A stretch of 55,389 nt of DNA from the NCBI GenBank assembly GCA_000934665.2, contig JYFJ02002591.1:1-55389 (forward strand), read 5' to 3'. This stretch comes from Catajapyx aquilonaris. Lineage: Eukaryota. Position 1 is the stretch's first letter; each line of letters starts with the position of its first letter. Under the pieces are notes generated by a model, which was not told the DNA's origin, ran no database searches, and saw only the letters and a program-made list of their open reading frames with translations. This document shows, piece after piece, positions 1 through 48,933 of the stretch. Position numbers and translations under genes: made by a program.

Positions 1-257
1 ATAAAATACTCCTCCAGCTTATCTAGCACTTCTTTTAGCGTACGGTTCTGCTCCTCCGTTTCGAACGTTAGCGTATCATAAATCTGCACAGTGTCTTTTC
101 CAATTACATGCAACAACACTGCTACTTGCACCTGTGCTTGTTTCATTGATAGCCCTGACGCTAGTGCGTACCTTTCGAATCCTTTCCTCCACTTCTGCCA
201 TGCATCCGCAGGACTGTCTGACGCCTGTAGTGGTGCTGGTTGGCTCAGGTGTTGCAT
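1..257 (-). mobile_element. Ty3/Gypsy (Mag-like) LTR retrotransposon gag N-terminus, runs off the window
   Basis: ATG at 257 opens MQHLSQPAPLQASDSPADAWQKWRKGFERYALASGLSMKQAQVQVAVLLHVIGKDTVQIYDTLTFETEEQNRTLKEVLDKLEEYF, a typical Mag-group gag start (W..W...F..Y..A.G...LLH.IG); lies downstream of a PBS and LTR. Confidence 0.85.
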
Positions 258-347
258 CTTGTGTTGGCTTTGCCCTGCTTACTCACCATGCGGTCGTCTA
301 GGCCTGGCTGTTCTTGTGATTTTTTCGGCGTTGATGGCTTTTACACT

Positions 348-2696: not shown

Positions 2697-3414
2697 GGCA
2701 CAGAAAATAACCAAGTTGAGGAATGTTTAAAATCTACTTGAATGGCCTTAAAGATGATAAAAATAAGCTTTTTAAGAACAAAAAGTGTTAAATCCTTATG
2801 CCATAATTCAAAGTGATCATTCAAGTAGATTTTCGTCAAACTCCTTTACTATTGGCAAAGATTTGCACTAAAAGAAAGCCTTAAAATGATTGAGATGTCT
2901 TGAAATCCTGAGAAAATTAACATATCATGGATTAGATAAATTTTTATTTGGTCATGACGCTCATTTTGTATTTTATTTCATTCTATAATTTTGGGTTTTT
3001 ATTTTTTCCAAAGTTATATTTTAAATATTGCGTATTGCACTTGCATTAAAAGTGGACACGTCTAATCGAGATTTCCTCTAAATCTAGAGAAAAAAAAACA
3101 AAATTAATTGACCAGATACACTGTATACAGTATGTTGTACCCTACATCATTGCCCCCTCCCTGGTTGTGGGATCTTTCGCTTTTCTTTCAGAAAATTTAC
3201 TTTGATTTTTCTCACATTTCAATATTTTAAACAAGTTTGGAATATATTACAGTCATATATGTAGTAGCTAATGAAATGTCTTCTCTATTTACTATAAATA
3301 TAGAGGGTGAAAATAAATTTTCATTGACTATTAGATATATGAGCAAGGTCATTATCAAACCCAGGCTGTCTCATGGTGTCTCCAGCGTGCTACGGTTTTG
3401 ACGAAATTACCTGA

Positions 3415-5372
3415 AATAACTTATCCTCAGTTATCAAAATGGCTATGATTGTCAACGTTAGGAACGCTGGTTCAAACGATCTTGTAAGAAAAAACTTATT
3501 GCAAAACGACATGCATGTTCCTGCATTTATGTGTGAGAGGTATGCTAAAATCACATGTCGAAATGACAAAATACGCGACTGCGGCAGTTTAAAAATTGAA
3601 ACATGTGACATAAATATGGTGTATACCCATTAATAGCCTACTGTGCCTACAAGGTGGCCTCCAAAAATGCAATGTAAGTTATACAGCAGAGCAATACCAG
3701 AAACTTCTGGCAAGGACGATTGAAGGTCAGTCTTCCTCCCCATCACCTTCAGCTCCAACCCTTCTCTTCCTCTTCCTTCGTGCCCCGACGCGACGGAGGA
3801 CATCAGTGATCTAACGCGATCAAAAATCATCATCTTCGCCCAGAAAGTTAGCCTGAAAGTTGGGTTGATGATGGCAGCTTCTCTAATGGATACTCTCTGA
3901 TGAAGTGATGAGATTCCCTGCTTTGAGCATAGGGTCATTCAAGGTCGTCCTTTTTCACCCCCCAAGCACGAGCAAGTTTTTCAAATTGGGATAGGCCCAC
4001 TTGACTTGAATCCTGGTCTTCATGCTGGTGCAGGAGGACCTGTGATTGTTCTTCCTGAGCCTCTCGCACATCTCCTGTCTGGTGCAAGAGAGGGGACGAG
4101 TGATTGCAGTGAATTAAAGAGGAGGTGATTTGATGTGTTAGCCAACACTTACCCTCAGAGTAGTCATCCATATTCGGTGTCTGCTTCACTGGTTGTTCGC
4201 TGCCAATGTAAAGCACCTGCCCACCAAGTCCAAATGTGTCATTACTATACCACCTGGAGGACATTTTGGGCACATTACAATTATTTATCACTTAAGCTGT
4301 ATTTGTGTGTGGGTGTGTGTGTGGGGGGGATTCATTAGTGACTACCCTTTTCACAGGGGAATGTGTCGAAACTTGTCAAAAGCTGTTTTCAATAAAAGTC
4401 ACTAAACAATATGCAGTTGTCATCATCATCACTGTATCAAAGTGAAACTGTCGAATAAATGCTTCACCTATATTTCTATAGAGCACCAGAAAACTCTGTG
4501 CCCTAATTTCTGAAAATATTCATGTTGCTTCATAACAATATATTCTCACTAATTGCTCCACGTGATTTTTGGTACAGAGAAAATAAAGAATGTATAGTTA
4601 ACGATATGTGATCCAATGTGATCCACCACATGTGAGAAAATGCATTACTTTACGCCTCATTTGCCCTACACATACGAAGAAAAACATACAAAATCACCAT
4701 GTCTCGTGTAAAATTGCCTTAGATCTGATGAGAACAATAAGCAACAGTGGACAATTTCCCATTTTCACCAGCGTTTTACCTAACACGTCAGTCTGATGTT
4801 ACGAGTCTGTTTTGAGTGTCCAGGGTTCCTGGTATCACAGAATCCTGCTCTATATTGCACCCAACTTCGGTAAGGAAGCCCGTCATGGGTTGAGGTGCGA
4901 CAGGAGCTGCAGCTGGTGAGTGTAGCAATTAATAATAATACTTGATACAAAATTTTGAAATCAGGGACAGTTGCAATTATAGCAAATATCATATCTGACT
5001 ATTTTTCAAAGCAACTCACTTGTTACAGCAACGTAATCAAATCAGCAACTTCAATAATGAACTTGATTCAATAAATGACAACGCCATAGTTGTGCATATT
5101 TTTGAATAATTATATTTCAATTAGTCTTGAATAGTACACGATATTTAATTGAGACAATTTTTAAAGCCTAAGTGAATGTATATGTACGTTAAATGTGCTG
5201 CTCTTTCTAAATTCCAATAATGTCTCTCGTATCTTTAATTCACTTTTAAGTTGTAGCTAGCCATACCCGTGTCACTTATTGTCCCATCATCATCAGTGTT
5301 GTAGCCCGAAGTTGTGGAAGCAGAAGCTGTAACTGCAGTCAAGTGGGAGACTTCCAGATTCCCATCGCATGA
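3415..5372 (-). pseudogene. Degenerate duplicate of the 3' part (end of exon 4, exons 5-7, 3' UTR) of the polo-like gene
   Basis: Collinear with 11225-13385. Exon blocks ~5372-5267 (CDGNLEVSHLTAVTASASTTSG), 4912-4780, 4253-4152 (FGLGGQVLYIGSEQP) and ~4074-3848 keep splice sites. No kinase domain; two in-frame TGA. Confidence 0.8.
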
Positions 5373-5380
5373 TATTGCCC

Positions 5381-5720
5381 ACAAGTAGCGCAAATTACCC
5401 TCCTGATTACGGGTAAATTAGTCCATCAAGATACCTCTAATTGCCCGCCACCAGCACCTCAAGACGCATGCGCACAGGAATAGTAGCCCCACCCCAGGCC
5501 TGAGCTCCTCCCCTTGCCTCCCATCTCCTCTCCTCCCCCCGTCCCCCGACCCTCAAAGCAAGCAGAGGGCAGCAGCTGCAGGGACGGCATACTACCAAGA
5601 TCGACCAAGATACTACGGCATAGTATCGTACGGCCACACTAGACCGCACGGCGCACACCGTGGCCTCAACACCCACGGTCTCGCACACCCATCGGTACAC
5701 CCACGACCCACCTTACCTGG
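5381..5720. promoter_or_regulatory. GC-rich promoter-like cassette (NRF1/Ewg-type palindrome, GC-box-like), copy 1
   Basis: ACGCATGCGCA at 5464-5474 and CCCCACCCC; homologous to 32224-32650; lies between the divergently oriented WD40 gene and kinase-tail copy. Confidence 0.55.
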
Positions 5721-5752
5721 AGTCTGTTGGAAGGACAGTGACATAGAAAGTT

Positions 5753-8455
5753 ATGGAAAATAACTACCAAGAGGAGGAGAGGGACAACCAAGCACTGAGA
5801 AGTGACCTTGAAGATGAGCCTGTAAGTGAATGCTCATCGACACTGGCAAGGACGTCATCCATAGAGGTAGATACGATCAGTGATTCAGAATCAGTGGATG
5901 CTGTAGACTCCGACATGACAGAGCTGGGACCATGGCCAGCTTTCAACCTGATGGATTATGAGTCAAGGCCAGAGGGTTCTGATGATACTACTACAACACA
6001 GTCAAGTGATGAGCTGCAGAATAAGCTCAAGAAAGTTGAACGGCAGGTAATGAAAGGGACAGCTATAAGGAAAGAAATCATTCGGGAGCTAGCAAGGCGA
6101 AGTGGGAACGACGAAGACAATCAGTTGTCCAGTGAGATCGACGAAGACAATCAGTTGTCCAGTGAGATCTTCGTACTGGAACCAGTACATGTGCCCACAC
6201 GACAGAAATATCAGCAGAAGGCAACACCAACAATAGTGACATTCCCCTCACCAGAAAGGAAACGCATCCAGGCTCATGCAGGTGCTGTGTTAGACATCAA
6301 GGTGGTCTATCCATACCTGTTTACTGCGTCTGAAGATTGCACCGTTTGCTGCTACCATTGTGATACCAACGAAGTTGTGTGTGTTTACGATGGTCATGAG
6401 TCACCGGTCAGGAGCTTGTTGCTGGACATTCCTACACCCAATGAATGTCAACCGCTTAGACTGGACAACGGGAAGGTTTTCACTGGCTGCCTTGACGAAA
6501 AGTTAAGGCAGTTTGACGCTGTCACTGGAGACATCATAACTGTTGTTGATGTCAACAGAGAAGTTTGGTGCATTGATTTTAAGTGGGGCTACATCTTCAT
6601 GGGCCTCTCAGATGGGCGGCTTGCATCGTATAATCTGGAGGTGAGTTAAAAATTGTGAATGGCCTTTCTAATTTTGTGGGATAATAATTCCAGCATGCTA
6701 CGTGAATTAACGTTTAGCCATTGAAAATATGCCCCTAATAATTCTGGATTGCATTGCAGTAATGAATTAAATTGGGCATGTGGTTCTGGTATTTATATTG
6801 TAATGTAGGCTACTGTATATGCTGTAAAAGTTGATTCTGGTCAAAGTTGGGTTAGTAATAAACCAAAAAAGTAAATCTATCACTTGCCCACACTTACTCT
6901 GGTTCATTACTAAGATACTGTTATAATCAGTTACAAAATAATAGTGTCTGTTATGCAATTCAGTTGCAAAAATACCAGAACTGATAATTTTAAAAAAAAA
7001 GTAATATTACCAAACTTTGATTCACCTGATACACTTGTAATTGAATAATTTTGGGATAGCTAATGCACAATACATTACGGTTTCTTTTTGCAGACTCACA
7101 GCCTGGACCACTTTCCTTATACCTGTAAGACTACTCAACCCATTCTTGGATTGAAGGCTCTGACTGATGCTGACAGGGGAGTTTTGATTGTCGCTCCTCG
7201 TTACAGCGGAATTTCTATGATCGATGCCTTCACAGGTATGATTACCTTCCACCACTAAATTATCATTCACAGATTGAATAATTTAATAAAGGACATTAAT
7301 AGCAAGAGAATAATCTGTGGGACACCTACAGTACTTTTGCTCTTGAAGACTTTTGGTGCAAATAGCAAAGAATGTGACGCCCACAAGAAAAGTGAAGCAT
7401 GCAATTACCTATTAGAATTAGTTCACATCATTGAGATATCAAAATTACTTCGTCTACAGTTGCAATAATTTTTTCCTTACAAATTGCCGCAGCACGAAAG
7501 GCAATTATATTAATTAATTAATTCAATATTCATTAATTTCTTCACAGCATTGTCCCAAGCGTGGGACATTTTCAAAACTGTCTCCCATGATAAGGTTTGT
7601 AGTGTCATGAAATATCCACAGCAGATCCAAAGGCAAGAGAAATCAGAAAATAACATTGTATGTACTGGAAAATTATTTAAATCAATATACTTATTTCACA
7701 TTAATGAAGCATATTGAAATCATTTTAATCTTATCTATGTATGAATCCATGTAAGGAAGAGCAATTGGGCTTGCAATTATTATATTATTTAAAGGTACAT
7801 CCCAGCTGGTTTTCTCTATTATCCAGGTTTTGAATTGACGAGCTTCACACAAAGTCAGCCAGTAAATTCAACAAACTGCATGCTGATTGATGAACATTTT
7901 GTCTACTGTTCCACCATCAGTAAGACGTTGGATTCTGGAGACATCTCCGTAAGTTGACTGTTGTTTTCTCACCGAAAGTGATTTGAACACATGATACGAA
8001 AGTGTTTCACAGATCCGGGGAGATGGTTCATGGGAGTATTCCAATGCCGTGAAGGGGGCAGGTTTCACCAACGCCATGGTTCTGTGGAAGCAATTCGTTC
8101 TCTGTGCCTCTCAGTATGGATACATCTACATATACAAGAAGGTGTGTTTCACTGGTATTTGCAGATTTTTATTATAATTCATAATGATCTTATCAACAGT
8201 GACATTTCTTGTATTCTTTCAGGGGGGGGAGTTTGTTGCCAAATTTCCTGGTGCTGGGAAAATGCTTCGCAGCATTACCATTGCGAACGGAAAGGTACGT
8301 GTCTCTTGTTTGAGTCTCTATCCAGCTTAACAAAATATATTTCCGATTATCCTTGTCCGCAGGTTTACTCTGGAAGTGAAGATGGGTGCGTGGAAATTCA
8401 GGGTCTTCTCAGTATTCCTGAACTGCAATGTTTGAAGTCAGCAGAGTACTTTTAA
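5753..8455 (+). CDS. ZNF106: ZNF106-like WD40-repeat protein (~481 aa; acidic N-terminus, coiled coil, WD40 propeller)
   Basis: Exons 5753-6640, 7094-7235, 7827-7948, 8013-8141, 8223-8294, 8363-8455, all GT-AG and phase-consistent (1446 nt). WD40 repeats (AHAGAVLDIKV..YLFTASEDCTV; YDGHESPVRSLL; VFTGCLDEKLR; KWGYIFMGLSDG; VYSGSEDG) follow the recalled order of the ZNF106 C-terminal propeller; divergent paralog. Confidence 0.75.
6110..6169 (+). repeat. In-frame 30-bp tandem duplication (DEDNQLSSEI x2)
   Basis: gacgaagacaatcagttgtccagtgagatc repeated exactly twice within exon 1. Confidence 0.95.
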
Positions 8456-10628: not shown

Positions 10629-11501
10629 CAGTGATGCTCTGTTTGTTTTTTTGCCAATCCCTGAAATGTAACTCATTTTAAAAGATTGTACTTGCATTTT
10701 TTATCAAGCCAAAAACAATTACACATATATAGTATACATCAACTTGGCTCTCAAACGGGTTCACTAACAATATGTACAACGACAATCAATATCCTTCGTT
10801 GCTTCGACGCCTCATCCGCTTCTTGGCTCCAAGAAACTCCCGTCATCGGAACGGTCCCCAAGTGTTAAACGACACATCCTACCAGATCCTACATCTTAGC
10901 GTGCAACCACCGGTATGGCTGTCTTCACCTTCTTCCGGTCCTTCTTACGCACCTCGCACCTATAGCTCCACCATAACGTGTACCAAACACTTTGGATGCG
11001 CTGAAAATATCGGAGATAATATATTTAATAGTTCAGAAGAATATACTTGTCACTGACTGATGTGTATGTTAACGAGATCACTGCAAACCTCACATTATGT
11101 ACACACATACAATTTTTGCTTGTAAGGTATTTAAAAATTGGGGAAACCTATTTGTACAATTCACATCACGAGTGACAAAAATATAAGTATACTCGAATAT
11201 TTAGGTTTGGAACACACACCAAAATAACTGATCCTCATCAGGCATAAAAATGGCTGTAATTTTCAACTTTAGGAACGTAGTCGTGGTCCCATTAATACGG
11301 TTCCTGCAAGGTGGCCTCCAAAAATGCAACATTCAGTGCAATATATCAGGAACTTTTGGCAACATTAATATCTAACTGGAGGAATGCAAGTGAAGGCCCC
11401 TTCACCCTCAGCTCCAACCCTTCTCTTCCTCTTCCTTCATGACCCGACGGAGGACATCAGTGATCTAACGCAATCATAACGCCTCATCTTCACCCAAGAA
11501 G

Positions 11502-14500
11502 TTAGCGTGGAAGATGGGTTGATGATGGCAGCTTCTCTGGATCATTATGCGACTCCCTGCTTCGAGCGTAAGGGTCATTGAGGGTCGTGCTTTTTTCATA
11601 GCCATTAGAAACCACTTCAAATTGGGGTTGGCCTGTAACAAGTGAGTCTTGGACTACATCATCCTGGTGCAGTAGGAGCTGTGATGGTTCTTCGGGAGCC
11701 TCTCGCACATCATCTGTCAGGTGCAAGAGAGGTGAAGAGTGATTGCAGCGAATAAATAAAGAGCATGTGGTGTGATGGGTTAACCACGCACTTACCCGAA
11801 GAGTATTCATTCAAGACTATTTGTTCGGGGGCTGAGCCGTGAATTCTCTTCAATGGTTGTTCTCCGGCTAAATAAATCACGTGTCCACCAATTCGAAAGA
11901 GGTAATCAGTTGTTCCATCACCTGAGAAACATTTTTGGGACATTATAATTTTTCACTTATTAAAAACAGCATTTGTGTGGGGGAGGGAACTGATTCATGA
12001 CTGACTACCCTTTTCACAGTGTCAAAACTGATCAAAACATGTTTTCAACAAACAACAACACCATCACGACAATTCCCTATAATGGGTAGTCAGCGATGAA
12101 GGGAGACGTAAGTGAATTCCACATAAATTATGAACTAAATTAAAACTTGTCAAAATAAAAGTATAAACTTTCCCACCACTCACCCCCCAACCCTGCCCAT
12201 CTCAGATGACGGACAGGGTGGCCCGAGCCCAACATGACATATTTTTCAATAAAAGTTACTAAAGGGGCGTTCAGACCCGAGAAGAATATTGAGTAACGCA
12301 ATGTCAGTTCCTATTGAATTGTCTGAACATTTTCCCAATAAGAAGGGAGAAAAAATTATAGTTTTAAAATATTGACAAAAATAATGACAAACAACCAATG
12401 AGAACATTATGACCCAATTGCTGCTGCAAAAGCAGAACGGATGAAAGCTGAAAATTTTAATACGCTACCACTTAATCTTAATGGATCACTAACATAGTGC
12501 TCTATCCTCAAAACAATATTTTTAAAATTAATTTGTGGAATTCGTGGTAGCAATTTCTCTCAGAAGACAATTAAAGATAAATGAAATTATTTTTGAACAC
12601 CACCACTCCAGGCATGGAGCTTGCTTCTTACCCCCTTAGCATGGTACCTCGCTATTCTAGATTTTAAAACTGAAATGTATAGTGCAAAGCACACTTCTTT
12701 ATGGGTGTATAGTCACAGCCCATTCGCTATACACATGTTACAAGCCCAAGAGGGGCGCGGGCCCGGGGCGGCGCACCCCCCCCCCCCCCCNCCCCCCCCA
12801 CACGCGCGAGTACGATACGAGTATTAGCCTGTACCTTTCTGGCTGGCATTATGTCGTTTCGAACCAAATGTACTGTCTTGCTTCTCTGACAGGTGTCCAT
12901 CAGCGTCAGGAACCTCTTTATTGCAGCCACCCTCTGTAAGGACTCTTGTACTATGTTGAGATGTCACAGGAACTGCAGCTGGTGAGTGTAGAAATTGATA
13001 ATATTTTTGATGAGCTCTACGAAGCACTGTTGAAATTATAGAAATTATCATCTGGCTATTTTTCAAAGCAACTGAATGACGACGCCATTGGGCATATTAT
13101 ATAATTATATTTCAATCGGGCTTGAATAGCAAATGATATTTAATTGAGATATAATTTTTCAAGCCCAAGTGAATATAAGTATACGAAGGATTTACTGATC
13201 TTTTATTTATTCAATAATGTGTCTCGTATTTTAAATTCACTTTAAGCTGTAGCTATAGCCATACCAGTGTCCCTACTTTTCCCATCATCAGGATTTTGGG
13301 GGGCTGTGTCGCAGCCTGGAGTTGTGGAAGCAGAAGCAGGAACTGCATCAGTCAAGTTGCTGATTTCCAGATTTCCAGGACAATCGCCTCCTAGCATGAA
13401 GGGATCAAAGAGAGCTTCTACAGCACTCGGACGCTTCCAGGGATTCTTATCTAGGAGGCGCGTGATAAGGGAGTTCGCTAGATTGCCCACACTCGTCGGA
13501 ATGTAATAGTCATTCTTCAGTACGAGCTTGTGTATCTCTGACCTTGTACGACCCTGAAACGCTCGCCTCCCCACGAGTAGCTCGTATAGGATACACCCGA
13601 TTGACCACATATCCGATGAGAATGTTTGCTTCTTGGTCCCTCGATGGGCTTCAGGAGACATATAATAACACGTGCCACATCGCATGCTGTATATGGGAAA
13701 GAAAACGTCATCGTCAGGGTCAGTCAAAACTTCAGGTAAATCTTGTTCTAGGATCTAGGGTATAAGCTATAAGGGGAGACCTGAGATAGTTGGCACACTT
13801 TTTACGTTTAATTTTTTTCTGATGTCAGTTAAGACTTATTCACTGTAATTTTTACATTGATGAATACTTCAGACACGTGCTCATACAGTATGTATGTTAC
13901 ATTTTTGAATTTTAAATATGCTATCCACTAAATATTATTTTAAAAACCTCGGCACATGCTCGATGCCTTGTGATTTTGTCATCTTTCCAAAAATGAAAGG
14001 GCCAATGCGTCGAAGGCATTTCACCAACATAGACTACTTGACCTCATAGCAAGGTTTGTAGCACGGACGTTTATCATAAAGACAGTAGTGTATACAGAGT
14101 GATGGAAACTTTTTGCGAAGCACCTGATACCTATTTACTTTAAAGGAAATGATCATTACATTCCGAACGACCCTCGCATATATTATACTGTACACACTTT
14201 TTTTTCTCCTTTTCAATTACCTCCCCATGACGGGATGGGAGATGGGGAGGGCTGGCTTTATAGGGCTTGTGCTACTCATGACTCCTATACTCCTATACTC
14301 CTATACTCCTATACTCCGCCTTGCCGTCAATCATGATCATACTGCATCTCAGTCAGAATGTATTTTTAATGTCCTACAAAATCAATGAAATTAAGAATAA
14401 ATTTACACACTATAGACTCTTACCGCAACTTCGCGTCGTCTGTTGCTCGCACTGCCATCCCGAAGTCCCCAACTTTAATGTCATGAGAATTGATAAACAA

Positions 14501-15144
14501 ATTCTCGGGCTTCAAGTCCCGATGGATTATATGCTTCTGATGCATATATCTCACTGCCACCAGTACCTGCCGGAGGATGTATCTAACTTCGGGCTCAGTA
14601 AACACTTTTCTCACGCGTTGCACATCCCTGAATTCCTGCAATGTAAGCGTGGGTCAAGATCGCGTCAGACCATATAGTGTATATAAGCACGGCAGAGAGC
14701 AACTACATACCCCTCTGTTGCATAGTTCCATCACCATATAAACGTTCTCGTCATCTTCAAAAGAACTATGCAGCTTTACAATGTGGTAGTTGTTCATTTC
14801 TCGGTGTATTGAAATCTCATTATCCATGTGCACTCTTCGATTATTTGTAAGTGATTTCTTACTTGTTATCTTAGCTGCATAAAGCATGTTTGTGTTCTGT
14901 TCCTGCACTACGTGGCATAGGGCATATCCACCCTAAAAGTGAAGATAATGTCAGATGGGTTACCAATATATCATCGCTATTTTCAATCGCAATGTTAAGG
15001 TGTTAGTGACATGCCAGTGATAGCCATCGCTAAGAAAATTCTTCTCAAAAGTGTCAATTTCGGGACAGCGTAATGGTTTAATGGCTTTTTTGTTCATGTA
15101 TAATTTTGTTTGCTTCATGTTGTTTTCGTTGTTGTTTGTAAAGT

Positions 15145-15216
<72 letters not shown>

Positions 15217-16504
15217 CATAGGCCCTACCCCGTGATAGGCGTCCTTGGGCCTTTTATGATGGGATCTTCCTGTCATTCACCAACTTTATTCATTTTCCTG
15301 TCCTATATGATGGGCTTTGAATGTGGGAGGAAACGGGAGAAACCCGAGAAAACATACGCGAACATGGAGAGAACCCATCGAAACTCTATCCACATAAGCA
15401 TCCTCTGTCCGATTCAGGAATCGAACTCGCGACCTTAGAGGTGGAAGGCTGCTGTGGCGCTAACCACTACGCCACCGTGTCCCCCATTTGTTTGTAAAGT
15501 GTAGCTGCACATCACCCGAGAATTTTAACTTGCTCTACTTCACTAAAAACTTGTCACTAGTCCCACAGTATGTGGACATACTCATTGTGACAGTTCATAA
15601 GGCCTTATAAATACAGTATACTGCAGTGTATTCAAGTTAACTGGGACTTTGAACAATATACAGTTGCTTTATTGTTCAAAGTTCCAGTAAACAGTGATGG
15701 GGTGTATCGTCTAGATACCAAAATGAGTATCTTTTATCTCATCTACATAATTTGAAATTGTGTATCTACTTGCATCTAATTATAGCTACTCTACGTAGAG
15801 TATCTGCGTGGCATCATCAGATACTTTTCCAGGTACTTTTAGGTGATTTTCTTGTGATTTTCCTTATGAAAACATGATCCCCCTACACAGAAATAATAAT
15901 GAAGTGTTGTATGCATATTGATATTGCATAGCGGTGCTGGTGCCATATAGTGGTAAACTGGTAATGTCAAAAGTAGTTATAGTGTGCCTGTCAGCTGTGA
16001 CTCGGTGCCAGAAGCTATATGGTCCGCTGAGCTCTGTGAGCACTGCTCAGTGCTCACAGACAAATTACTGTACAGAGGTTTAATTATTTTTTCGTTACCA
16101 AACAGAATAATAAAACATAGCGAAATTGATAGCATCACTCATGGCAGTAGACTGTAGAGTAGCTTATTATACTACAGTGCCAAACTAATGAACTATTGAA
16201 CTATACATATGTTTTAATCCACGGTGAACCAGAGTATAATGTTATTGAGGATGACAAATAAGTCAAAAGAAATATATTCGCACGCGCTTGCGAGTCGGTA
16301 TATCGTAGGCTATATATGGAGTTGTATGGAGTGTCTCAGAAAATGTATCTTATCTACTACTAGATACAATGTCGAAAGAGTATCTGGTGCTATAGTATAG
16401 TACAGCATCTAGATGGTAACATTTGTATCTATAGTATCATTCTGATCTAGATACTTTTTGAAAGTATCTTCCCCATCACTGCCAGTTAACTTAAAATAAC
16501 GGCT

Positions 16505-16586
<82 letters not shown>

Positions 16587-16757
16587 TCTCTCTCCGCAAT
16601 GTGGCTCGCCACAAATAAACACTTTTTCTACAAAGTTACAACTTGAAACACTTACCTCTCCCAGAAACGTTTTGGTATAGTAAGTCTTGTTCCTAAAAGG
16701 ATCACGGATGTGTGGCGGAATATATTCAGGTTTCTCCACTTTCTCCCGCGTAGCCAT
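11502..16757 (-). CDS. polo: Polo/PLK1-derived Ser/Thr kinase lacking the Polo-box domain (~479 aa)
   Basis: Exons 16757-16656, 14932-14711, 14635-14424, 13686-13265, 12978-12835, 11921-11796, 11713-11502, all GT-AG, phases 0,0,2,1,1,1, total 1440 nt. Motifs LGEGGYALC (PLK-type Cys), YAAK, NEISIH, HRDLKPEN, DFG, CGT..YMSPE, DMWSIGC, and post-kinase GGDCPGNLEISNLT resembling the polo/PLK1 P..LP.SCLT segment. Divergent paralog, not canonical polo. Confidence 0.88.
12263..12730 (+). mobile_element. Interspersed repeat (PIF/Harbinger-like left end), second copy inverted at ~51845-52318
   Basis: Begins aggggcgttcagac; collinear reverse-complement match to 51845-52318. Confidence 0.7.
15149..15487 (-). 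mobile_element. V-domain tRNA-SINE with (ACT)n tail and 17-bp TSD
   Basis: A/B-box head, V-domain-like aatgtgggaggaaacgggag...gagagaac, TSD ttgtttgtaaagtgtag on both sides, (AGT)n microsatellite ~15145-15214. Confidence 0.85.
15692..16481. mobile_element. hAT-type MITE
   Basis: TIR cagtgatgggg / ccccatcactg; 8-bp TSD ccagtaaa / ccagttaa; subterminal gtatct/agatac repeats. Confidence 0.85.
16504..16594. repeat. (CT)n microsatellite in intron 1 of the kinase
   Basis: Direct observation. Confidence 0.98.
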
Positions 16758-25951: not shown

Positions 25952-28900
25952 TCATTGCTGGGACGGCGTAGGTTCTGGGAAGGCAACATATCTCCTTTTT
26001 TTGATTGGCAACGTGCTAGCATGAATCAGCTTGAATTGATCTTGCTTAACATATTGAGCCTCTCTCAAGTTATCCAGGTACATTTGTAGCTCTGTTTTAG
26101 CCTCTACCCAATCCTTGGAATGTTTCGTACTCGGCTTCTGTATAACAAAATAATATTAGTAAGTTAATATACCTGCGTATAACATCTTCTACCAGAACTT
26201 TCATTCAAGTGAGTATTTTAGATGTATATTTTCACGACAGTTAATAACAGTATACATATAGTTCATGCTTATCATGGATGCTGAAAGGTATAGACTATAT
26301 ACCTGAATGGTGCTGACATCAGTAGATAGGGCTATAGGCTTGACATATTCCTTTTTCAATGTGGCCCTCTCATACTGGCCACCAAAAAACCTCACATCGC
26401 AGTGGGTTTCATTTCTCTCCATCACCTTGGCTGGCCAGTATGGGTGTCCCTGCACTTTGGCCAACGCGACTCCATGAGGAGGATCACACAATTGTGTGTA
26501 CCACTTCTCAGGCCTTTCAGCTGATAGCCGACAGCAATTAGCGCACAAAACAATTTGTCGCAAGTCATATTGGCACTCCTGAAGCATGTCCAGGGCTCGG
26601 ATACGAATATCAAAACCTGCGGATAAGATGAAACATAACTCTATGCGTACTATAATATCTATAGTTTTGTCTTAAGAAATGCTGCATTAACCCATATGTT
26701 CCTATAGCGTCCTATAGGACGGGGAGGAAAAAAATTTATTTCTCGCAGTTATGATTATAAATCACAGATTAAGGGAGCTGAACTTCTTCATGAAAGTCTA
26801 TAAGTTACTCTATAGTGGGAGAATGCATATGTTAGGCGCAAACCCCGAAAACGGCCATTGAGCGAAAAAACCTAGAATTTCGCGGAATGCTCTTTTCAAA
26901 ACAGCCAGACCCGGAAATGATCTTTTTTAAAAGGCCAGAACGCTTTTCCGGACTACATAAAAATGTCAGGATGCGAATTTAGTGTCGTGGCTGGTTCAGA
27001 AAACGCCCAGAACGCGTTGTAGAATTTTCTTGGTACCGGCAGTACACACCACGCCAAGTAGATATAACAACAATAAGGTGATTTACTTCCAGTAAGTTAT
27101 ATATACTTGACGTAGTGGGTAACAAGAAACTGCCACAGCGCGTTATGGGCTTTTTCTGAGCCAGCCACGACACTAATTTCGCGCCCTGACATTTTTGTGT
27201 AGTTCATAAAACTGTTCTGTCTTTTTAAAGAGCATTTCGCGAAATGCCCTTTTTTCCGCTCAATGACCGTTTTCGGGGTTTGAGCCTCACATATAAATCA
27301 CATTTACGTGATTGCAACAGCCACAAATACAAGTTGAATGTTGGGAAATTTGCCAATTTCAGAACTGGCGCGATTGAGTAACTATTTCCTTGGATTATAA
27401 ATATACAAGGTGGTCGAAAAATAATGCCTCGATTCTAAAACCCTATAACCGAAAACTTGTAGACATACCATATCTTCATGATTTAAGTTTTGAAATGGTA
27501 AGAAAAGTCTAAAGTTTTGGTCTGGCTATAGTTTGTTTATGAGCTTCATTTGTCGCTCGGAAAATGTAAATACTCTAATCGGTGTCGTGCCTAACCCGGT
27601 CAGACATGTCTGGAGTCACCAAATTGTGATCTTATCCCTTAGGTGCTGGAGATGCCGGATGTATTCACCATATAACTTGTTAGTACCTGTATCTTCACAA
27701 TAAAGTCAATCGGGGTAAGATCTGGGCTTCTGGGGGAGCTACAGGCATTGGCAAACTTCTCATTCAAGACGTTGCACACTGGGAGGCTGAACAAATGAAA
27801 CCTGTCTACGGCATGTTTGTTTCATGCTGGATGAGGCGATTTTTTACTTGAATCATTAAGAACAATGTGTGTGGTGTAAAGATCCGGGATATCCATCACC
27901 TACATGATAATATCGCAACGGTAGCTCCATATACGTATAATAATAATTATATTGAGCGGGTTTGGCACACTGCCGAGGGACAAAGGGGGCTATAGAAACA
28001 AACTATAAGTTGAGACCAAAACCTTAACTTAGCATTTCAAAACTTAAGTCATTAAGATATATGTCTACAAGTTTTCAAGTTATAGCGTTTTAGAATCGGG
28101 GCATTCTACTTCTATATCTTCGAAAAATAAATACAGTGTATGGCTGTTGCAAGAAAGGTTGTTAAAAGCCCATACAATATTTACATTGTTGGCCCCTATA
28201 TGAGTGGTGAATGGCAGCAAGGGATGGAAACACAATGGTGACGCCCTACAATCCACTAATACCTTTGATAGCCGTTAAAGTAACTGCTTAAATATTATGT
28301 AGATTAGTGCCAACAACAACCCGGACAACAAATCGGAGAGGTATTTTCCCTGTATATAGCCATAGTGTTTAGTGTTACATATAGTGCAACTTGGTACCCA
28401 TATACGTTTCTAGATGAAAAAAGAGAAACTTTGTCTTGGAAAAATTTATGAAACCCGATATAATGGGCTTAAATACCTGAATTATTGGGATATAATACGA
28501 TTCCATCATTTCTACCAGCACTGCACCATTCCATGTGAGAATTGCAACATTGCATTGCATATAAAGTGGAGTAATGAGTGGAGAGAAAAGTATAGCCTAC
28601 ATAAGGATTGTCCTATATAGCGTCCTATATATAGGACGCCTTGTAACTTCTGTTGCAATTAAAATTTTACGCTGAGCTATTTTTTCTTCTGCCTTCTAAC
28701 GCATGACTTAAAATATTATTGAAATTATTATTAACTTACCTGTATCATCAGTATAGATCAACCTCAAGAACAAATTGGTTAAATGAGAAGTGAGGCCAAT
28801 AAATTAGTGAGAGGTGTTCAACTTACTCCGCTCTTCTTTCCTCCTCCTTCCTCTCTGCATATATACTTTGGGCTGCCCATAATATATGGCAACATTATGA

Positions 28901-30747
28901 GCAACAGTTTTGGCATCCGCCAAGAATTCATCGAGTGTGTTGTAAGTCATGCTTTCAGCCTTCTTGGTCATTTCCACAACGTCTACATGTTTGTATACCA
29001 TGCTGTTATAGCATACGGTAACCTGCTCAGGATCTACGACATGGGTACTGATTTCTGCTGTTACCTGGCAATTAGGAAGACTATAGGGCAAGCTACAGGG
29101 CACCTACAAAGATAAAATACATGCAACAAGTCATGTGACTATACAGTTACTCTACCATGATAAAAATCTAACTATTAGTTTAATAACACACATATTCCAA
29201 AAGTCTCTTGCAGGTAACATGCAGGAGGTAGTTCAGGAGGTCTTTCGATATTTCCATTGTTTGGATCTTGTTGCTTCCCTGTAAGAAAATGGGTTCAGCG
29301 TGCACAATAATGGTTTCTGTCATCACGTATAGAGCTTGACTAACCTATATGCTACAGTATAGAACTAATGAATTAATAGCACTGTGCAGTATGTACTGTG
29401 TTACAAGCAAGCAATCAGTAATTTGTCACAATTCATGCATTCATGCAGTGTGACGCAGGAGATTTGCAAAAATTCACAATATTTATGATTTTTTTTTTAC
29501 TCACTGCGCAGATGCTGCATAGGGAATTATGAGCATCCACAGGCGTTGTTTCCATCACGCACCTTTCGTGGAACACCCTGTGACAGGTGTAACACTCGAC
29601 CACGTCTCCAGGCGTGTGACACGAAAAGCAGTACCAGTCATGAAGACTTTTATCCAACTGAAGTATAAAATATACGAAGCATAGTCTGTTAATAATAATA
29701 ACTATAATTATCTTAATAATAGTAACAACAATAAACCTTACTTCTTTTTGTGGCATGGAATAGATCTCTTGAGTTTTTGAGTCTAATTTCATTTCCACCT
29801 TGCAAATCAACCCCTCACATGAGCTCCATTGCAGCTGTTCTTTCACATAAGTTTCTGAAATTCAAAGTGGCAATTTCAGTCGTTGAAGATGTCTAAATTT
29901 TAGGAATGTGACTTCCTCACCTGATTTCTCAACTTGACATTATTTAATGTTAGAACAGTGGAATGTGACCTTAATGTACCCTAATATTAAAGGAATATTG
30001 TCCAGTATAAAAGTTTGTTCAGTCGCATAAGATTTCCATGCAGTGTAGGCCTGATGCATATAGGCCTACACATGTTATTGTATGTAATTAGATTAATTAA
30101 TAGATACCCCGTGATAGGCCTCGTCCTTTGGCCTTTTAGGGGATCATCTTTTTAAATACCGACTTTAATCATTTGCCTGTACTCCGATGGGTTTTTATAG
30201 TAGCAGGAAACGGGAGAGCCCCGAGAAAACCACGCGAATACGGAGAGAACCCATCGAAACTCAATCCACATAAGTACCCTCTGTCCGACCCGGGGATCGA
30301 ACTCGGGACCTCAGAGGTAAAAGGCTGTGGCCCTAACCACTACACCCTCTGTTTAGTAAAGACAATTTTTTGTGGAATGCAGCAATTATTCTGATAATGA
30401 CAGGATTTCAATTTTGGCTGCAAGAATCTCAAACTTTCATCACCTAACAATGTTTACTAAAATACTGTATATACTGTCAGCTTGGAGAATTATCGGAGAA
30501 ATAGGCCTACCCCATGTATAATAATATTCATCATAATTATAGCTTATTGTGAACATTTCCTTAAATGATTTCCTTACTCCTCTAATGAGTGTACATGTTA
30601 AAAATCACCTTTTTCTGGATCATTCTGGCATTTCATTGCATCATAAATCCTTTCAAGAGTTGGTTCTTGCTTCTGGCTCTTGATTTTTTGGATAGCCACC
30701 CAGAGCTTCACCACCGTTTGAGGATCTGACTTCCTTGACAGAACCAT
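25952..30747 (-). CDS. ZMYND11: ZMYND11/BS69-like chromatin reader (winged helix-PHD-bromo-ZnF-PWWP), no MYND as assembled (~422 aa)
   Basis: Exons 30747-30609, 29854-29742, 29657-29505, 29278-29192, 29103-28827, 26616-26303, 26137-25952, GT-AG and phase-consistent (1269 nt). Motifs LWVAIQKIKSQKQ, HDWYCFSCHTPGDVVECYTCHRVFH..C, EFLADAKTVAHNVAIYYG, LCANC...CDPPH, AKVQGHPYWPAKV...DVRFFG, W.EAK.EL. Confidence 0.88.
26827..27294. mobile_element. Palindromic MITE in ZMYND11-like intron
   Basis: aggcgcaaaccccgaaaacggccattgagcg / cgctcaatgaccgttttcggggtttgagcct plus inner IR tgtcgtggctgg..cagaaa / tttctgagccagccacgaca. Confidence 0.8.
27405..28115 (-). mobile_element. Deleted Tc1/mariner (maT/DD37D-like) element
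   Basis: Imperfect long TIRs (atgcctcgattctaaaac..aaaacttgtagacata / tatgtctacaagtttt..gttttagaatcggggcat); internal PRSPDLTPIDF motif on the minus strand near 27700-27735. Confidence 0.75.
30095..30350 (-). mobile_element. V-domain tRNA-SINE
   Basis: Same family as 15149-15487 and 46049-46332. Confidence 0.85.
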
Positions 30748-31691
30748 ATTTGAGCACGATGTACTTGATTTCTGTTCCCTGAGAATAATGGCATTAATAT
30801 TTATGTTAAATGAATTTATTGGCATATAACTTATATGTTAAAAGATTAAGTTATATAATATTATATACCAAGCACTTCTTGTAAAACTGGTAATTATACA
30901 GTAGCCTACTTCGTATTGCACGACAGACTTTACCAAATAAATGGCTAAAATCATGGTACACGATAGGCTACTGTAGAAATATTGTTTCGGAGTATCAGTT
31001 AGTATATAGCTAAAAAAGATGGAGATGATTTTGCATACCGTATGGTTTCAATGCGAAATCGTCTCCATCTTTTTGAGCAACGATATAGTATATAGGCCTA
31101 CATAAAACATAATAAGCACATAAGCAACAGTATTCTTCCTCCTGAAACATGACAAAATTGTAAGCTTGACATTCCTTAAAACATCTTAACTGGCTTAACC
31201 GCCTCAAACATGGCAGCACTTACAATAAGGGAAAATATCCAAGAAAAAGTCATTTTTTTATCAGACTTGAAGAGCCAATTATGATAATATTTACGCACCA
31301 GGTACACAAGTAGTACCATACCAGTTTCACATTACAGGGCTTTCATTTGAAAAATGTCTTCAATTCCCTACAATAATAATCAAAAACCAAAAATTATTTT
31401 TACGCACGTTTCTAATTTTTGGACCACCACTTCCCACAGCGTTTCACATTGCAGAAAGTGGAGATGTCTGGGAAGCTGTGTTTAAGACATCTGACACCAC
31501 GTAACAGAACGCGGGACGTCGACCCTATCCCCTTATCTTTGCTGCAGCCTCAATACCTCCGAAGTGGGTTCAGCTTCTTGAGGAAATGAGTGTGTGGAAT
31601 AAAAGAGATAAGAGGAGCAGAAATACTGGCAGAAAGAGAGGAACTCATGTCAGAAAAATATTAGATGGGTGAGTAAGTGATCATTACTGTT

Positions 31692-32204: not shown

Positions 32205-32223
32205 TACGCAGCACATATAACCT

Positions 32224-32650
32224 ACAAGCACGCAAATTACCGACTTGTTGCTGGTTAATTAGTCCACCAAGTAAGGGCCATCACTCTCACATACCTCCAA
32301 TTGCCAGCTGGAATGTTCCATCTCTTCCCAGGCCAAGCGTTCCACAGCCGTAATGCCTGGTAATGCCTCGCCACCTTTGCCGCCACCATCCATTCCAAAC
32401 GCATGCGTACTGGAATCGTAGCTTGGCCCCGCCCCAGGTCAGAGCTCCTCCCACCTCCCCTCCCCACCCGGTCCACCCCTTCCCCCGCCTTCCCCTTCTT
32501 CCCCTTATCCTCCCCAACAGCATGGCCGCCATTGCAGCATACCATCGGTAGTTCTGTTCAACTGGAAACGGCGGCGGCGGCATCGGCAGGCATCTCCATC
32601 AGGTATGAGTACCCATCGGTAGGCCTACACCCGAACCCGGCGATGGTCTT
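32224..32650. promoter_or_regulatory. GC-rich promoter-like cassette, copy 2 (probable ZMYND11-like promoter/first exon)
   Basis: ACGCATGCGT 32399-32408, GGCCCCGCCCC 32425-32435, minus-strand donor gag|gtatgt near 32295; homologous to 5381-5720. Confidence 0.6.
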
Positions 32651-37854: not shown

Positions 37855-38451
37855 GCACCCTGGTTTCAATCCACACCAAATGCTGTTCTCCTGTGGCCCT
37901 CGCCGCCTCGCGAATGAGAATTGGAGCTCAGTGTCAAAAGATGATGATGATAATGATGAATATGATGATGATTTCGTGACGACGACCTGATGCGTGGGTG
38001 CTCCTATACATATTTTAAAAAGGTATAAAAAATTAATTTCAATATGTTATTCGTACCGTCAGACGGGGTGAACTTGGTCCAAAATTTCCGTTTTACGAAG
38101 ATATTAAGCGTGAAGATATTAACCCACAACTGTGAAATTTTTTATTAGGTGTTAGACCACGCTGGCCAAAAGGGCGAGTACAATTAAAAATTTTCTGTTC
38201 ACAATGGTGCGTATAGGCATGGCGTCATAGCCAAGTCCACCCCAACCGATGGGGGTATACTTGACCATCTAATTTTCCCATTACAAATGCCCTGTGCGGG
38301 AAACGAGTTCTGCTAAGAATGTTTTAATTTGTTTTTAAGGAACGATATTCATATAAGCCGTAATACATATTCTCATGAGTTTTATTAGTTCATATGTTGG
38401 GTTAGCTTGCGTCTCCCTTCATCACTGACTACCCCTCATAGGGAAATGTCA

Positions 38452-38484
<33 letters not shown>

Positions 38485-46048: not shown

Positions 46049-46332
46049 ATAAATAATAATAATAATAAATAATAATAATAATGGATACCCTGTGATAGGC
46101 CCCTTGGGCCTCTTAGGGGATCATCTTTTGAATAACTGACTTTAATCATTTGCCTGTAATGTGATGGATTTTGATAGTGGGAGGAAACGGGAGAACCACG
46201 AGAAAACCCATGCGAACACGGAGAGAACCCATCGAAACTTGATCCACATAAGTAGCCTATCCTCCGTCCAACCCGGGGATCGAACTCGGGACCTTAGAGG
46301 TGGAAGGCTGCGGCGCTAACCACTCGGCCCCC
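46049..46332 (-). mobile_element. V-domain tRNA-SINE with (TTA)n tail and TSD gtgactgcgca
   Basis: Head ggccgagtggttagcg...gagttcgatcccc; V-domain-like ttctctccgtgttcgcatgggtttt...cccgtttcctcccac; 11-bp TSD. Confidence 0.88.
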
Positions 46333-46354
46333 GTGACTGCGCACAATAATGCAA

Positions 46355-48653: not shown

Positions 48654-48933
48654 CAACCGAAGCAGGTTGGCATAGTGGATAAGGCGTCCGACTGCTAATT
48701 GGGAGGTCCTGGGTTCGAATCCCGGGGCCGACAACTCTGACCGTGGTTTTCTGTGGTTTCCCATGGTCCTCCCAGGGAAATTCCGGAGTTGCTTCCGTAA
48801 TTAATAGGCCACAGCCGCTTCCTTCTGTCCCTATCCTATCCCAAAGATCACAGTAAAATGAAAAGCAAAGAGTTCCAGGCAAAACAAACTTCCCCCCTAA
48901 AGAGCCGATGGCTGATAAAACGGGGTATGAATT
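48654..48933 (+). mobile_element. tRNA-SINE family A, full length, 15-bp TSD
   Basis: A-box tggcatagtgg, B-box ggttcgaatcc, core ggccacagccgcttcctt, TSD attattttagggaag (48639-48653, 48934-48948). Confidence 0.92.

Follow-up and report, generated by a model that had tools for sequence, protein, structure and literature searches.

A Polo-type kinase gene of Catajapyx aquilonaris with an intact kinase domain and no Polo box in its surroundings

Introduction

Can a Polo kinase gene go without the Polo box, and if it does, what follows its kinase domain? The question is raised by a gene on the minus strand (positions 16757-11502) of contig JYFJ02002591.1 of Catajapyx aquilonaris (GenBank assembly GCA_000934665.2); the contig was analysed over its full length of 55,389 nucleotides (nt), and this whole stretch is called the window here. 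What defines Polo kinases (PLKs) is the pairing of a kinase domain with a Polo-box domain, by which the kinase is both targeted and held in check, and the latter is treated as a hallmark of the family (PMC7653357). A sequence-only reading of the locus had proposed an intact kinase derived from Polo/PLK1, the Polo-box domain of which is replaced by a novel targeting tail encoded in three exons. The kinase part of this proposal was borne out by the present analysis; the replacement of the Polo-box domain by a targeting module was not. Instead, the locus is probably a lineage-specific, DNA-level duplicate of a PLK1-type Polo kinase gene in which the kinase has been kept, the Polo box is gone, and the predicted tail is unconstrained.

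Gene model

Exon borders were set from the splice-site contexts of the minus strand, read between 11300 and 17000. The resulting gene model has seven exons (Table 1), all with GT/AG borders, which join to 1440 nt and encode, in one frame, 479 amino acids (aa) followed by TAA; the phases after exons 1 to 7 are 0, 0, 2, 1, 1, 1, and 0. The sequence-only reading had arrived at the same seven exons and approximately the same length, and translation also bears out its arithmetic at the point where two C-termini compete: if the phase-1 donor at 13264 is read through, the frame soon ends at 13242, and if the donor is used, three further phase-1 exons can be joined. The kinase part of the protein is encoded by four exons (minus strand, 16757-13265), throughout which the frame is intact. 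The kinase domain is split by three introns, unlike a processed (retro) copy, which would have no introns and a poly(A) tract; because the gene has introns, a duplication at the level of DNA is the probable route by which it arose. A partial duplicate of its 3′ end, called copy 2 here, lies further downstream.

Table 1. Positions of the exons of the window kinase gene, of the partial copy, and of repeats at the locus
Feature	Position	Strand	Remarks
Exon 1	16656..16757	-	ATG at 16757-16755; 34 codons, with the PLK-type N-terminal extension and the glycine loop up to its middle; donor GAG/GTAAGT in phase 0
Exon 2	14711..14932	-	Remainder of the glycine loop, YAAK lysine, helix-C Glu, ELC hinge; 74 codons
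Exon 3	14424..14635	-	Catalytic loop HRDLKPEN, DFG, beginning of the activation segment; phase 2 at its end
Exon 4	13265..13686	-	T-loop, SPE, C-lobe, ~20 residues from the start of the PLK interdomain linker, then ~20 unmatched residues; phase-1 donor CTG/GTATGG
Read-through alternative	13242..13264	-	Seven codons and TAA at 13244-13242; kinase-only protein of 326 aa (translation)
Candidate poly(A) signal for a short isoform	13202..13211	-	Two overlapping AATAAA, ~30 nt past the stop at 13242
Predicted exon 5	12835..12978	-	48 codons, phase 1 to phase 1; hydrophilic; without family match
Predicted exon 6	11796..11921	-	42 codons, phase 1 at either end; the one stretch of the tail with moderate hydrophobicity
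Predicted exon 7	11502..11713	-	70 codons and TAA at 11504-11502; acidic, composition of the disorder type
Copy 2	3414..5372	-	Colinear duplicate of the 3′ fragment 13377-11222: from the end of exon 4 through intron 4 to the 5′ half of exon 5, then from the end of intron 5 through exon 6, intron 6, and exon 7 into the 3′ flank
Repeat element	5372..5548		Also at 32215-32487; starts at the very position at which copy 2 ceases to be homologous to the kinase gene
SINE-like (short interspersed nuclear element) repeat in intron 1	15226..15479		Copies at 46086-46335 and 30105-30346; ~80% identical
Interspersed repeat in predicted intron 5	12273..12718		86% identical to 52317-51879, inverted
Microsatellites in introns of the kinase gene	14281-14317 (intron 3); 15145-15215 and 16505-16594 (intron 1)		8-mer x4.6; (GTA) ~24; (TC) 45

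A kinase domain of the Polo type

The Pfam family Pkinase (PF00069) is matched by the peptides of exons 2, 3, and 4 far beyond chance (E values 9.5e-13, 8.9e-20, and 3.6e-18; all scores above the curated cut-off), and the three matches cover the profile consecutively (positions 10-83, 84-152, and 154-263 of 263). Alignment with 11 relatives revealed that the catalytic residues are all kept, that is, the β3 lysine of YAAK, the helix-C glutamate, the aspartate of HRD, the asparagine of the catalytic loop, the aspartate of DFG, and the glutamate of SPE. Judged by profile and residues, the gene would encode a catalytically competent eukaryotic protein kinase.

That this kinase is of the Polo type is indicated by its closest matches. 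Among solved structures, exon 2 ranks PLK1 first (3.7e-14), followed by PLK2 (5e-12), PLK3 (4.7e-11), and PLK4 (2.7e-6); exon 3 matches PLK2 (9.7e-18), PLK1 (1.6e-16), and PLK3 (5.8e-16); exon 4 matches PLK1 (4.6e-20), then Aurora A (4.6e-14) and PLK2 (7.3e-14), and its alignment to the PLK1 structure extends past the kinase domain into the PLK1 linker. An exhaustive HMMER search of 1.84 billion representative proteins with the exon 4 peptide returned 53,131 proteins at an E value of 0.001 or less, none of them at 1e-30; its closest single-stretch relatives belong to the canonical kinases that have two Polo boxes and share 40–45% identity with the peptide. Pfam found Polo boxes (PF00659) in 10 of the 21 relatives scanned; six are other kinases, two are of the PLK4 type (Plk4_PB1 and Plk4_PB2, one of them with a weak PF00659 match in addition), and the remaining three (P0008, P0024, and P0120) combine a PLK-like kinase domain with absence of a Polo box. 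In a word-indexed collection of longer proteins the same peptide had two weak matches among 235 candidates (43% and 38% identity), and no annotated product of the window kinase gene was found there.

Over 277–281 aligned columns, the window kinase is 33.5–40.6% identical to the 11 relatives, the two PLK4-type proteins showing the lowest values of the set (33.5% and 36.3%). Shared with the relatives are the flank preceding the glycine loop, the glycine loop with its cysteine, and the ELC hinge; G-E-G-G-Y-A-L-C of the window kinase corresponds to G-K-G-G-F-A-K-C, which makes it a glycine loop of the PLK type. Directly after the kinase domain follows the linker motif C-P-x-x-L-x-I-S-x-L-T, with spacing identical to that in the relatives. 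What the gene has retained is thus a kinase domain that is open and splice-competent, an N-terminal flank of the PLK type, and the beginning of the linker between the domains.

In a maximum-likelihood tree of 15 proteins the window kinase lies within the PLK1-type members (nested supports 83/99, 88/87, and 92/90), at the end of a terminal branch of 2.0 substitutions per site, the median being 0.6; the gene has diverged unusually fast. Because of this long branch its exact place is unsure, and approximately unbiased (AU) tests reject neither a grouping with the PLK4 type (p 0.18) nor a position outside the PLK1-type members (p 0.27). Since these tests leave both placements standing, the derivation from Polo/PLK1, on which the sequence-only reading was supported, is argued mainly from the ranking of best matches and from the shared flanks. 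On these grounds, the kinase domain appears closest to PLK1-3 rather than to other kinases, with the AU tests leaving room for alternatives. Membership in the PLK4/SAK type is not indicated; the tail ORFs match no Plk4 boxes, PLK4 is a far weaker match than PLK1-3 for exon 2, and identity to the PLK4-type proteins is lowest.

Departures from the PLK pattern

Within this otherwise PLK-like domain, three positions or segments deviate, and neither the loss of the T-loop threonine nor the departure in the catalytic loop was mentioned in the sequence-only reading. In the T-loop, the column before the [L/M/I/V]-C-G-T motif is occupied by Thr or Ser in 11 of the 11 relatives and by Met in the window kinase. 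The activating residue of the T-loop is called Thr210 in human PLK1 (PMC12953774), and the methionine presumably occupies the equivalent column. The catalytic loop reads H-R-D-L-K-P-E-N, where the PLK type has H-R-D-L-K-L-G-N or something close to it; P-E occurs at these two positions in none of the 11 relatives, their loops being of the form K-[L/V]-[G/A/S]-N, with S-L-A-N in one case. Finally, the P+1 segment is G-T-C-Y-Y-M-S-P-E in the window kinase and G-T-P-N-Y-I-A-P-E in the relatives.

Such departures are what one might see in a dead or dying duplicate, an unexpressed relic the kinase frame of which is open by chance. The very long branch would fit a relic, as would the loss of a Thr/Ser found in every relative, the non-PLK residues in the catalytic loop and the P+1 segment, the loss of the C-terminal domain that defines the family, the neutral evolution of the sequence downstream, and the decaying partial copy nearby (the last three are treated below). 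However, ~320 codons in four exons are free of stops and frameshifts despite 60% amino-acid divergence; all eight splice sites of introns 1–3 and the exon 4 donor are intact, and so is every catalytic residue, whereas neutral decay to such a distance would be expected to break the frame. Moreover, the residues that replace those of the PLK catalytic loop are common in active Ser/Thr kinases generally. We therefore regard a relic as a rather unlikely explanation, if one to be reckoned with. If the locus were a decaying duplicate after all, it would be an ordinary by-product of segmental duplication.

Search for a Polo box

The C-terminal pair of PF00659 domains that characterizes PLK1-3 was not found. 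As the sequence-only reading had stated, the tail bears no Polo-box signature: the three tail open reading frames (ORFs) match no Pfam family at E values up to 10, neither PF00659 nor the cryptic Polo boxes of PLK4 (PF18190, PF18409). For more sensitive comparisons, eight Polo-box domains were excised from library matches and used as queries. With tblastn against the whole window (E up to 10) they gave no minus-strand match downstream of exon 4, and the only match under E 0.1 (E 0.004) lies in a stop-containing frame of the plus strand at 4217-4519. A hidden Markov model (HMM) built from the eight domains and run with filters off against 1907 stop-to-stop ORFs of at least 20 aa and against the spliced model found nothing better than E 0.57; the tail ORFs scored -1.5 to -2.0 bits. 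Likewise, hhalign of the tail against the eight-domain alignment gave a probability of 0.5%, the range of hhalign probabilities being 0.5–1.6%, and its local score was reached by 15 of 200 shuffles for the whole tail, 8 of 200 for exon 6, and 5 of 100 for the copy-2 segment.

By eye, exon 6 and its equivalent in copy 2 have some likeness to the start of Polo box 1, and a cryptic Polo box was considered. This candidate was discarded as evidence; Pfam, the HMM, and the shuffles speak against it, and the likeness is treated as noise because exon 6 and its equivalent in copy 2, although homologous, align to different Polo-box columns (58-101 and 41-74, respectively). By all of these searches, no Polo-box domain appears to be encoded in the window.

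The Polo-box domain of this gene might also have escaped the search, either because it lies beyond the start of the window or because it was lost at a run of G with an N at 12791. Indeed, the window holds only ~13 kb downstream of exon 4, and the N lies within predicted intron 5. Against this, the downstream sequence consists of a WD40 gene on the plus strand (5747-8452), the decayed copy 2, and repeats; Polo-box exons located farther away would need splicing across another gene because the WD40 gene intervenes. Copy 2, which stems from the same 3′ region, is also devoid of Polo-box coding sequence, and the faint Polo-box-like matches of exon 6 and copy 2 are in mutually inconsistent registers. 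An unseen Polo box thus seems very improbable.

Copy 2 and the predicted tail

Both blastn and pairwise alignment match 13377-11222 to 5364-3414 in colinear order and in the same orientation, with 72–86% identity per segment. Copy 2 begins inside the equivalent of exon 4, with the PLK linker motif, and upstream of it no kinase-domain similarity was found. Of exon 5, the 3′ half is missing, as is the donor; several indels are present, and the equivalent of exon 7 contains an in-frame stop. Rather than a second gene, copy 2 is a 3′ fragment in decay. A capture of the tail from some other gene via the copy-2 locus was considered, but the PLK linker motif at the start of copy 2 itself led to its rejection. 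By eye, the best conserved part of the duplicated block is the stretch after the exon 7 stop (11400-11500, corresponding to 3740-3840); it includes ~31 identical purine-rich bases and is better kept than the predicted coding exons, the wider interval 11290-11501 averaging 77%.

The fragment allows the three predicted exons to be judged. If these are spliced as proposed, the 479-aa protein could carry a targeting tail peculiar to its lineage, which would stand in functionally for the Polo-box domain and would probably do so in the germline. Seven exons in frame with canonical sites agree with this, and each of the six tail splice sites looks usable; lacking any Polo-box signal, the tail, if real, would have to be something else. 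Yet when 60 non-coding 1.8-kb segments were drawn at random from the window and examined with similar splice-site and length criteria, 14 of them allowed a comparable chain of three phase-consistent exons (and 11 one of at least 480 nt); unlike the kinase part, the in-frame chain is not beyond chance. Retention of the splice sites in the second copy had also been adduced. This is correct in that 5 of the 6 dinucleotides survive (as read from the alignment); the second copy, however, is the truncated, decaying fragment described above, and survival at this level is uninformative because, at ~78% nucleotide identity, it is expected without selection in about 1 in 4 cases (rough arithmetic).

Coding potential gives a mixed picture. 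A codon-usage score was trained on ~780 codons of recognisable coding sequence in the window and compared with non-coding ORF segments of the same length; the score of exon 7 is reached by only 2.6% of 152 such segments and that of exon 5, more marginally, by 8.7% of 485, whereas that of exon 6 is reached by 69% of 665, which amounts to no coding signal. The tail exons have a G+C content of 0.44–0.49 (kinase exons, 0.39–0.50), higher than the 0.30 of intron 4. Apart from exon 6, these values favour a coding tail.

Comparison with copy 2, in contrast, discloses no sign of conservation or purifying selection. Over 145 usable codons (23 were skipped), the ratio of nonsynonymous to synonymous substitution rates (dN/dS) is 0.87, and 40, 30, and 37 differences fall on the first, second, and third codon positions; taken singly, exon 6 has a dN/dS of 1.73 (30 codons) and exon 7 one of 0.72 (65 codons). 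The tail exons are no better kept than the introns, since 278 of 373 positions (74.5%) are identical in the former and 388 of 490 (79.2%) in the flanking introns (Fisher p 0.12). Nor did any of the 23 candidates for the exon 7 peptide in the word-indexed protein collection reach E 0.1. In addition, the exon 4 donor is followed at once by a stop and AATAAA signals, whereas the stop of exon 7 has no AATAAA/ATTAAA behind it until 11029, ~470 nt on. The tail carries a net charge of -12, and its composition is of the disorder type (disorder-promoting residues make up 54%, compared with 42% for the kinase domain). A tail that took over the targeting role of the Polo-box domain, probably in the germline, is improbable in the light of these results, and any functional targeting role of the tail is equally doubtful. 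Most likely, the sequence past the linker is unconstrained and of the disorder type, and not a targeting module. Where the protein ends is a separate matter: splicing of the three predicted exons into 479 aa may well occur, if with somewhat less than even confidence on our part, and termination at 13242 with AATAAA behind it (326 aa) can be put forward tentatively; some other C-terminus accounts for what is left.

Origin of the gene and likely properties of its product

Taken together, the duplicate of a PLK1-type gene that has kept its kinase, lost its Polo box, and carries unconstrained sequence behind the linker probably describes the locus best. The kinase domain would have been under constraint over most of its history, because an open frame and all catalytic residues survive ~60% divergence and a branch of 2.0. 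Its product may then be an active Ser/Thr kinase that does not dock, by way of a Polo box, on primed phospho-sites and that escapes the intramolecular control which the Polo box exerts on the kinase. It might also be independent of T-loop phosphorylation for its activation, since the T-loop threonine is replaced by methionine. Such an enzyme would be unregulated, or regulated in a different manner, and its specificity would be set by the altered substrate-binding segment and by the time and place of its expression. At a later time, a 3′ piece of the gene would have been copied 6–8 kb downstream, where it now decays.

Several points weigh against this view. Constraint on the kinase domain is argued from its intactness, and a kinase of little or no activity would fit equally well with the methionine of the T-loop and the altered residues in the catalytic loop and the P+1 segment. 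The long branch and the undecided AU tests leave the origin less firm than the best matches suggest. As to the tail, the coding scores of exons 7 and 5, the G+C content of the tail exons, and the usable look of their six splice sites argue for coding sequence, and constraint acting on one lineage only is easily missed when the partner of the comparison is a dead copy. As to the Polo box, the search downstream of exon 4 extended over no more than ~13 kb, and the N in the run of G at 12791 marks an uncertain spot of the assembly.

The boldest combination, that is, an expressed and active Polo kinase which has rid itself of both the Polo-box domain and the phospho-acceptor of the T-loop and has acquired a newly exonised acidic tail, appears unlikely. 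Were it true, the locus would be a natural experiment in which Polo catalysis is uncoupled from phospho-priming and from activation of the Aurora type, and possibly retargeted to suit a lineage or a tissue.

Neighbourhood and repeats

The WD40-repeat gene (5747-8452, plus strand) is situated between the kinase gene and copy 2; it starts ~380 nt from the truncated end of the latter, in head-to-head orientation, and its ORF 5747-6646 matches WD40-type Pfam families weakly and, among solved structures, WD40 proteins of a generic kind. Upstream of the kinase gene and on the same strand, 26204-30837 encodes a PWWP domain (26204-26671), a bromodomain (28807-29103), and a SAMD1-like winged helix (30601-30837); the ORF 29436-29861 in between resembles a PHD finger by eye and has no Pfam match. 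This neighbour is probably a chromatin-reader gene of the PHD-bromo-PWWP kind, the PHD part being assigned by eye. An open frame running off the start of the window (3-278, minus strand) has no Pfam match at E values up to 0.01; it resembles the gag-like N-terminal region of long terminal repeat (LTR) retrotransposons.

The introns of the kinase gene have collected repeats (Table 1). The SINE-like element of intron 1 is flanked by the (GTA)n array at 15145-15215, and its 5′ part looks tRNA-derived by eye; the sole tRNA-like sequence of the window called by ARAGORN and Rfam is at 48662-48733. A short repeat at 12046-12147 matches 38378-38471. The long run of G at 12770-12815, in predicted intron 5, holds the only N of the window (12791) and is followed by very G+C-rich sequence; it is possibly an assembly artefact or a collapsed spot.

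Comparison with known systems

The nearest known system is PLK1/Polo itself, represented by the solved kinase domains of human and zebrafish and by library proteins P0031, P0037, P0040, P0092, P0115, and P0123, which include the best matches of the window kinase exons. The likeness extends over the N-terminal flank, the cysteine pattern of the glycine loop, the ELC hinge, the TEPE...RY segment, the start and spacing of the linker, and the grouping in the tree. The window kinase differs in being only 37–41% identical over the kinase domain, in the absence of a Polo box, in the methionine of the T-loop, in the K-P-E-N loop, and in the G-T-C-Y-Y-M-S-P-E segment.

The Polo box is listed as a characteristic domain of the family even for the minimal kinome of Giardia (PMC3218828), and in microsporidia a Polo-box domain is reported for the PLKs of two of the four species studied (PMC4280135). 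The sequence-only reading had pointed to polo duplicates of Drosophila as a parallel, and Dpse-polo-dup1 of Drosophila pseudoobscura is indeed a testis-biased, fast-evolving duplicate of polo (PMC11708218). According to this source, however, its kinase domain and Polo-box domain are present without insertions or deletions, and the two residues that bind phospho-peptides are conserved (PMC11708218). It resembles the window gene in being a lineage-specific Polo duplicate whose coding sequence evolves far faster than that of its parent; because its full Polo-box domain is kept and the window gene has none, the parallel covers duplication and fast evolution only.

Closer in architecture are the library proteins P0008 (384 aa), P0024 (409 aa), and P0120 (496 aa), which combine a PLK1-type kinase with a short, partly low-complexity C-terminus other than a Polo box and fall into the same region of the tree as the window kinase. 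They differ from it in having kept the Thr/Ser of the T-loop and the PLK catalytic loop, and by eye their tails are unlike its tail. These anonymous predictions suggest either that the kind may occur in other places too or that gene models of this sort are frequently cut short. The open-access literature that was searched yielded only engineered constructs devoid of the Polo-box domain and no natural PLK1-type paralogue of this kind, which is not proof that none is in print.

A retained paralogue that lacks both the Polo box and the threonine of the T-loop would show how far the catalytic module of Polo can be reused on its own, and such a natural "kinase-only" Polo would be comparable with the engineered truncations. 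Human PLK5 represents the opposite loss, for it has no functional kinase domain and its Polo box is kept; like the window gene, it is a PLK family member minus one of the two modules by which the family is defined.

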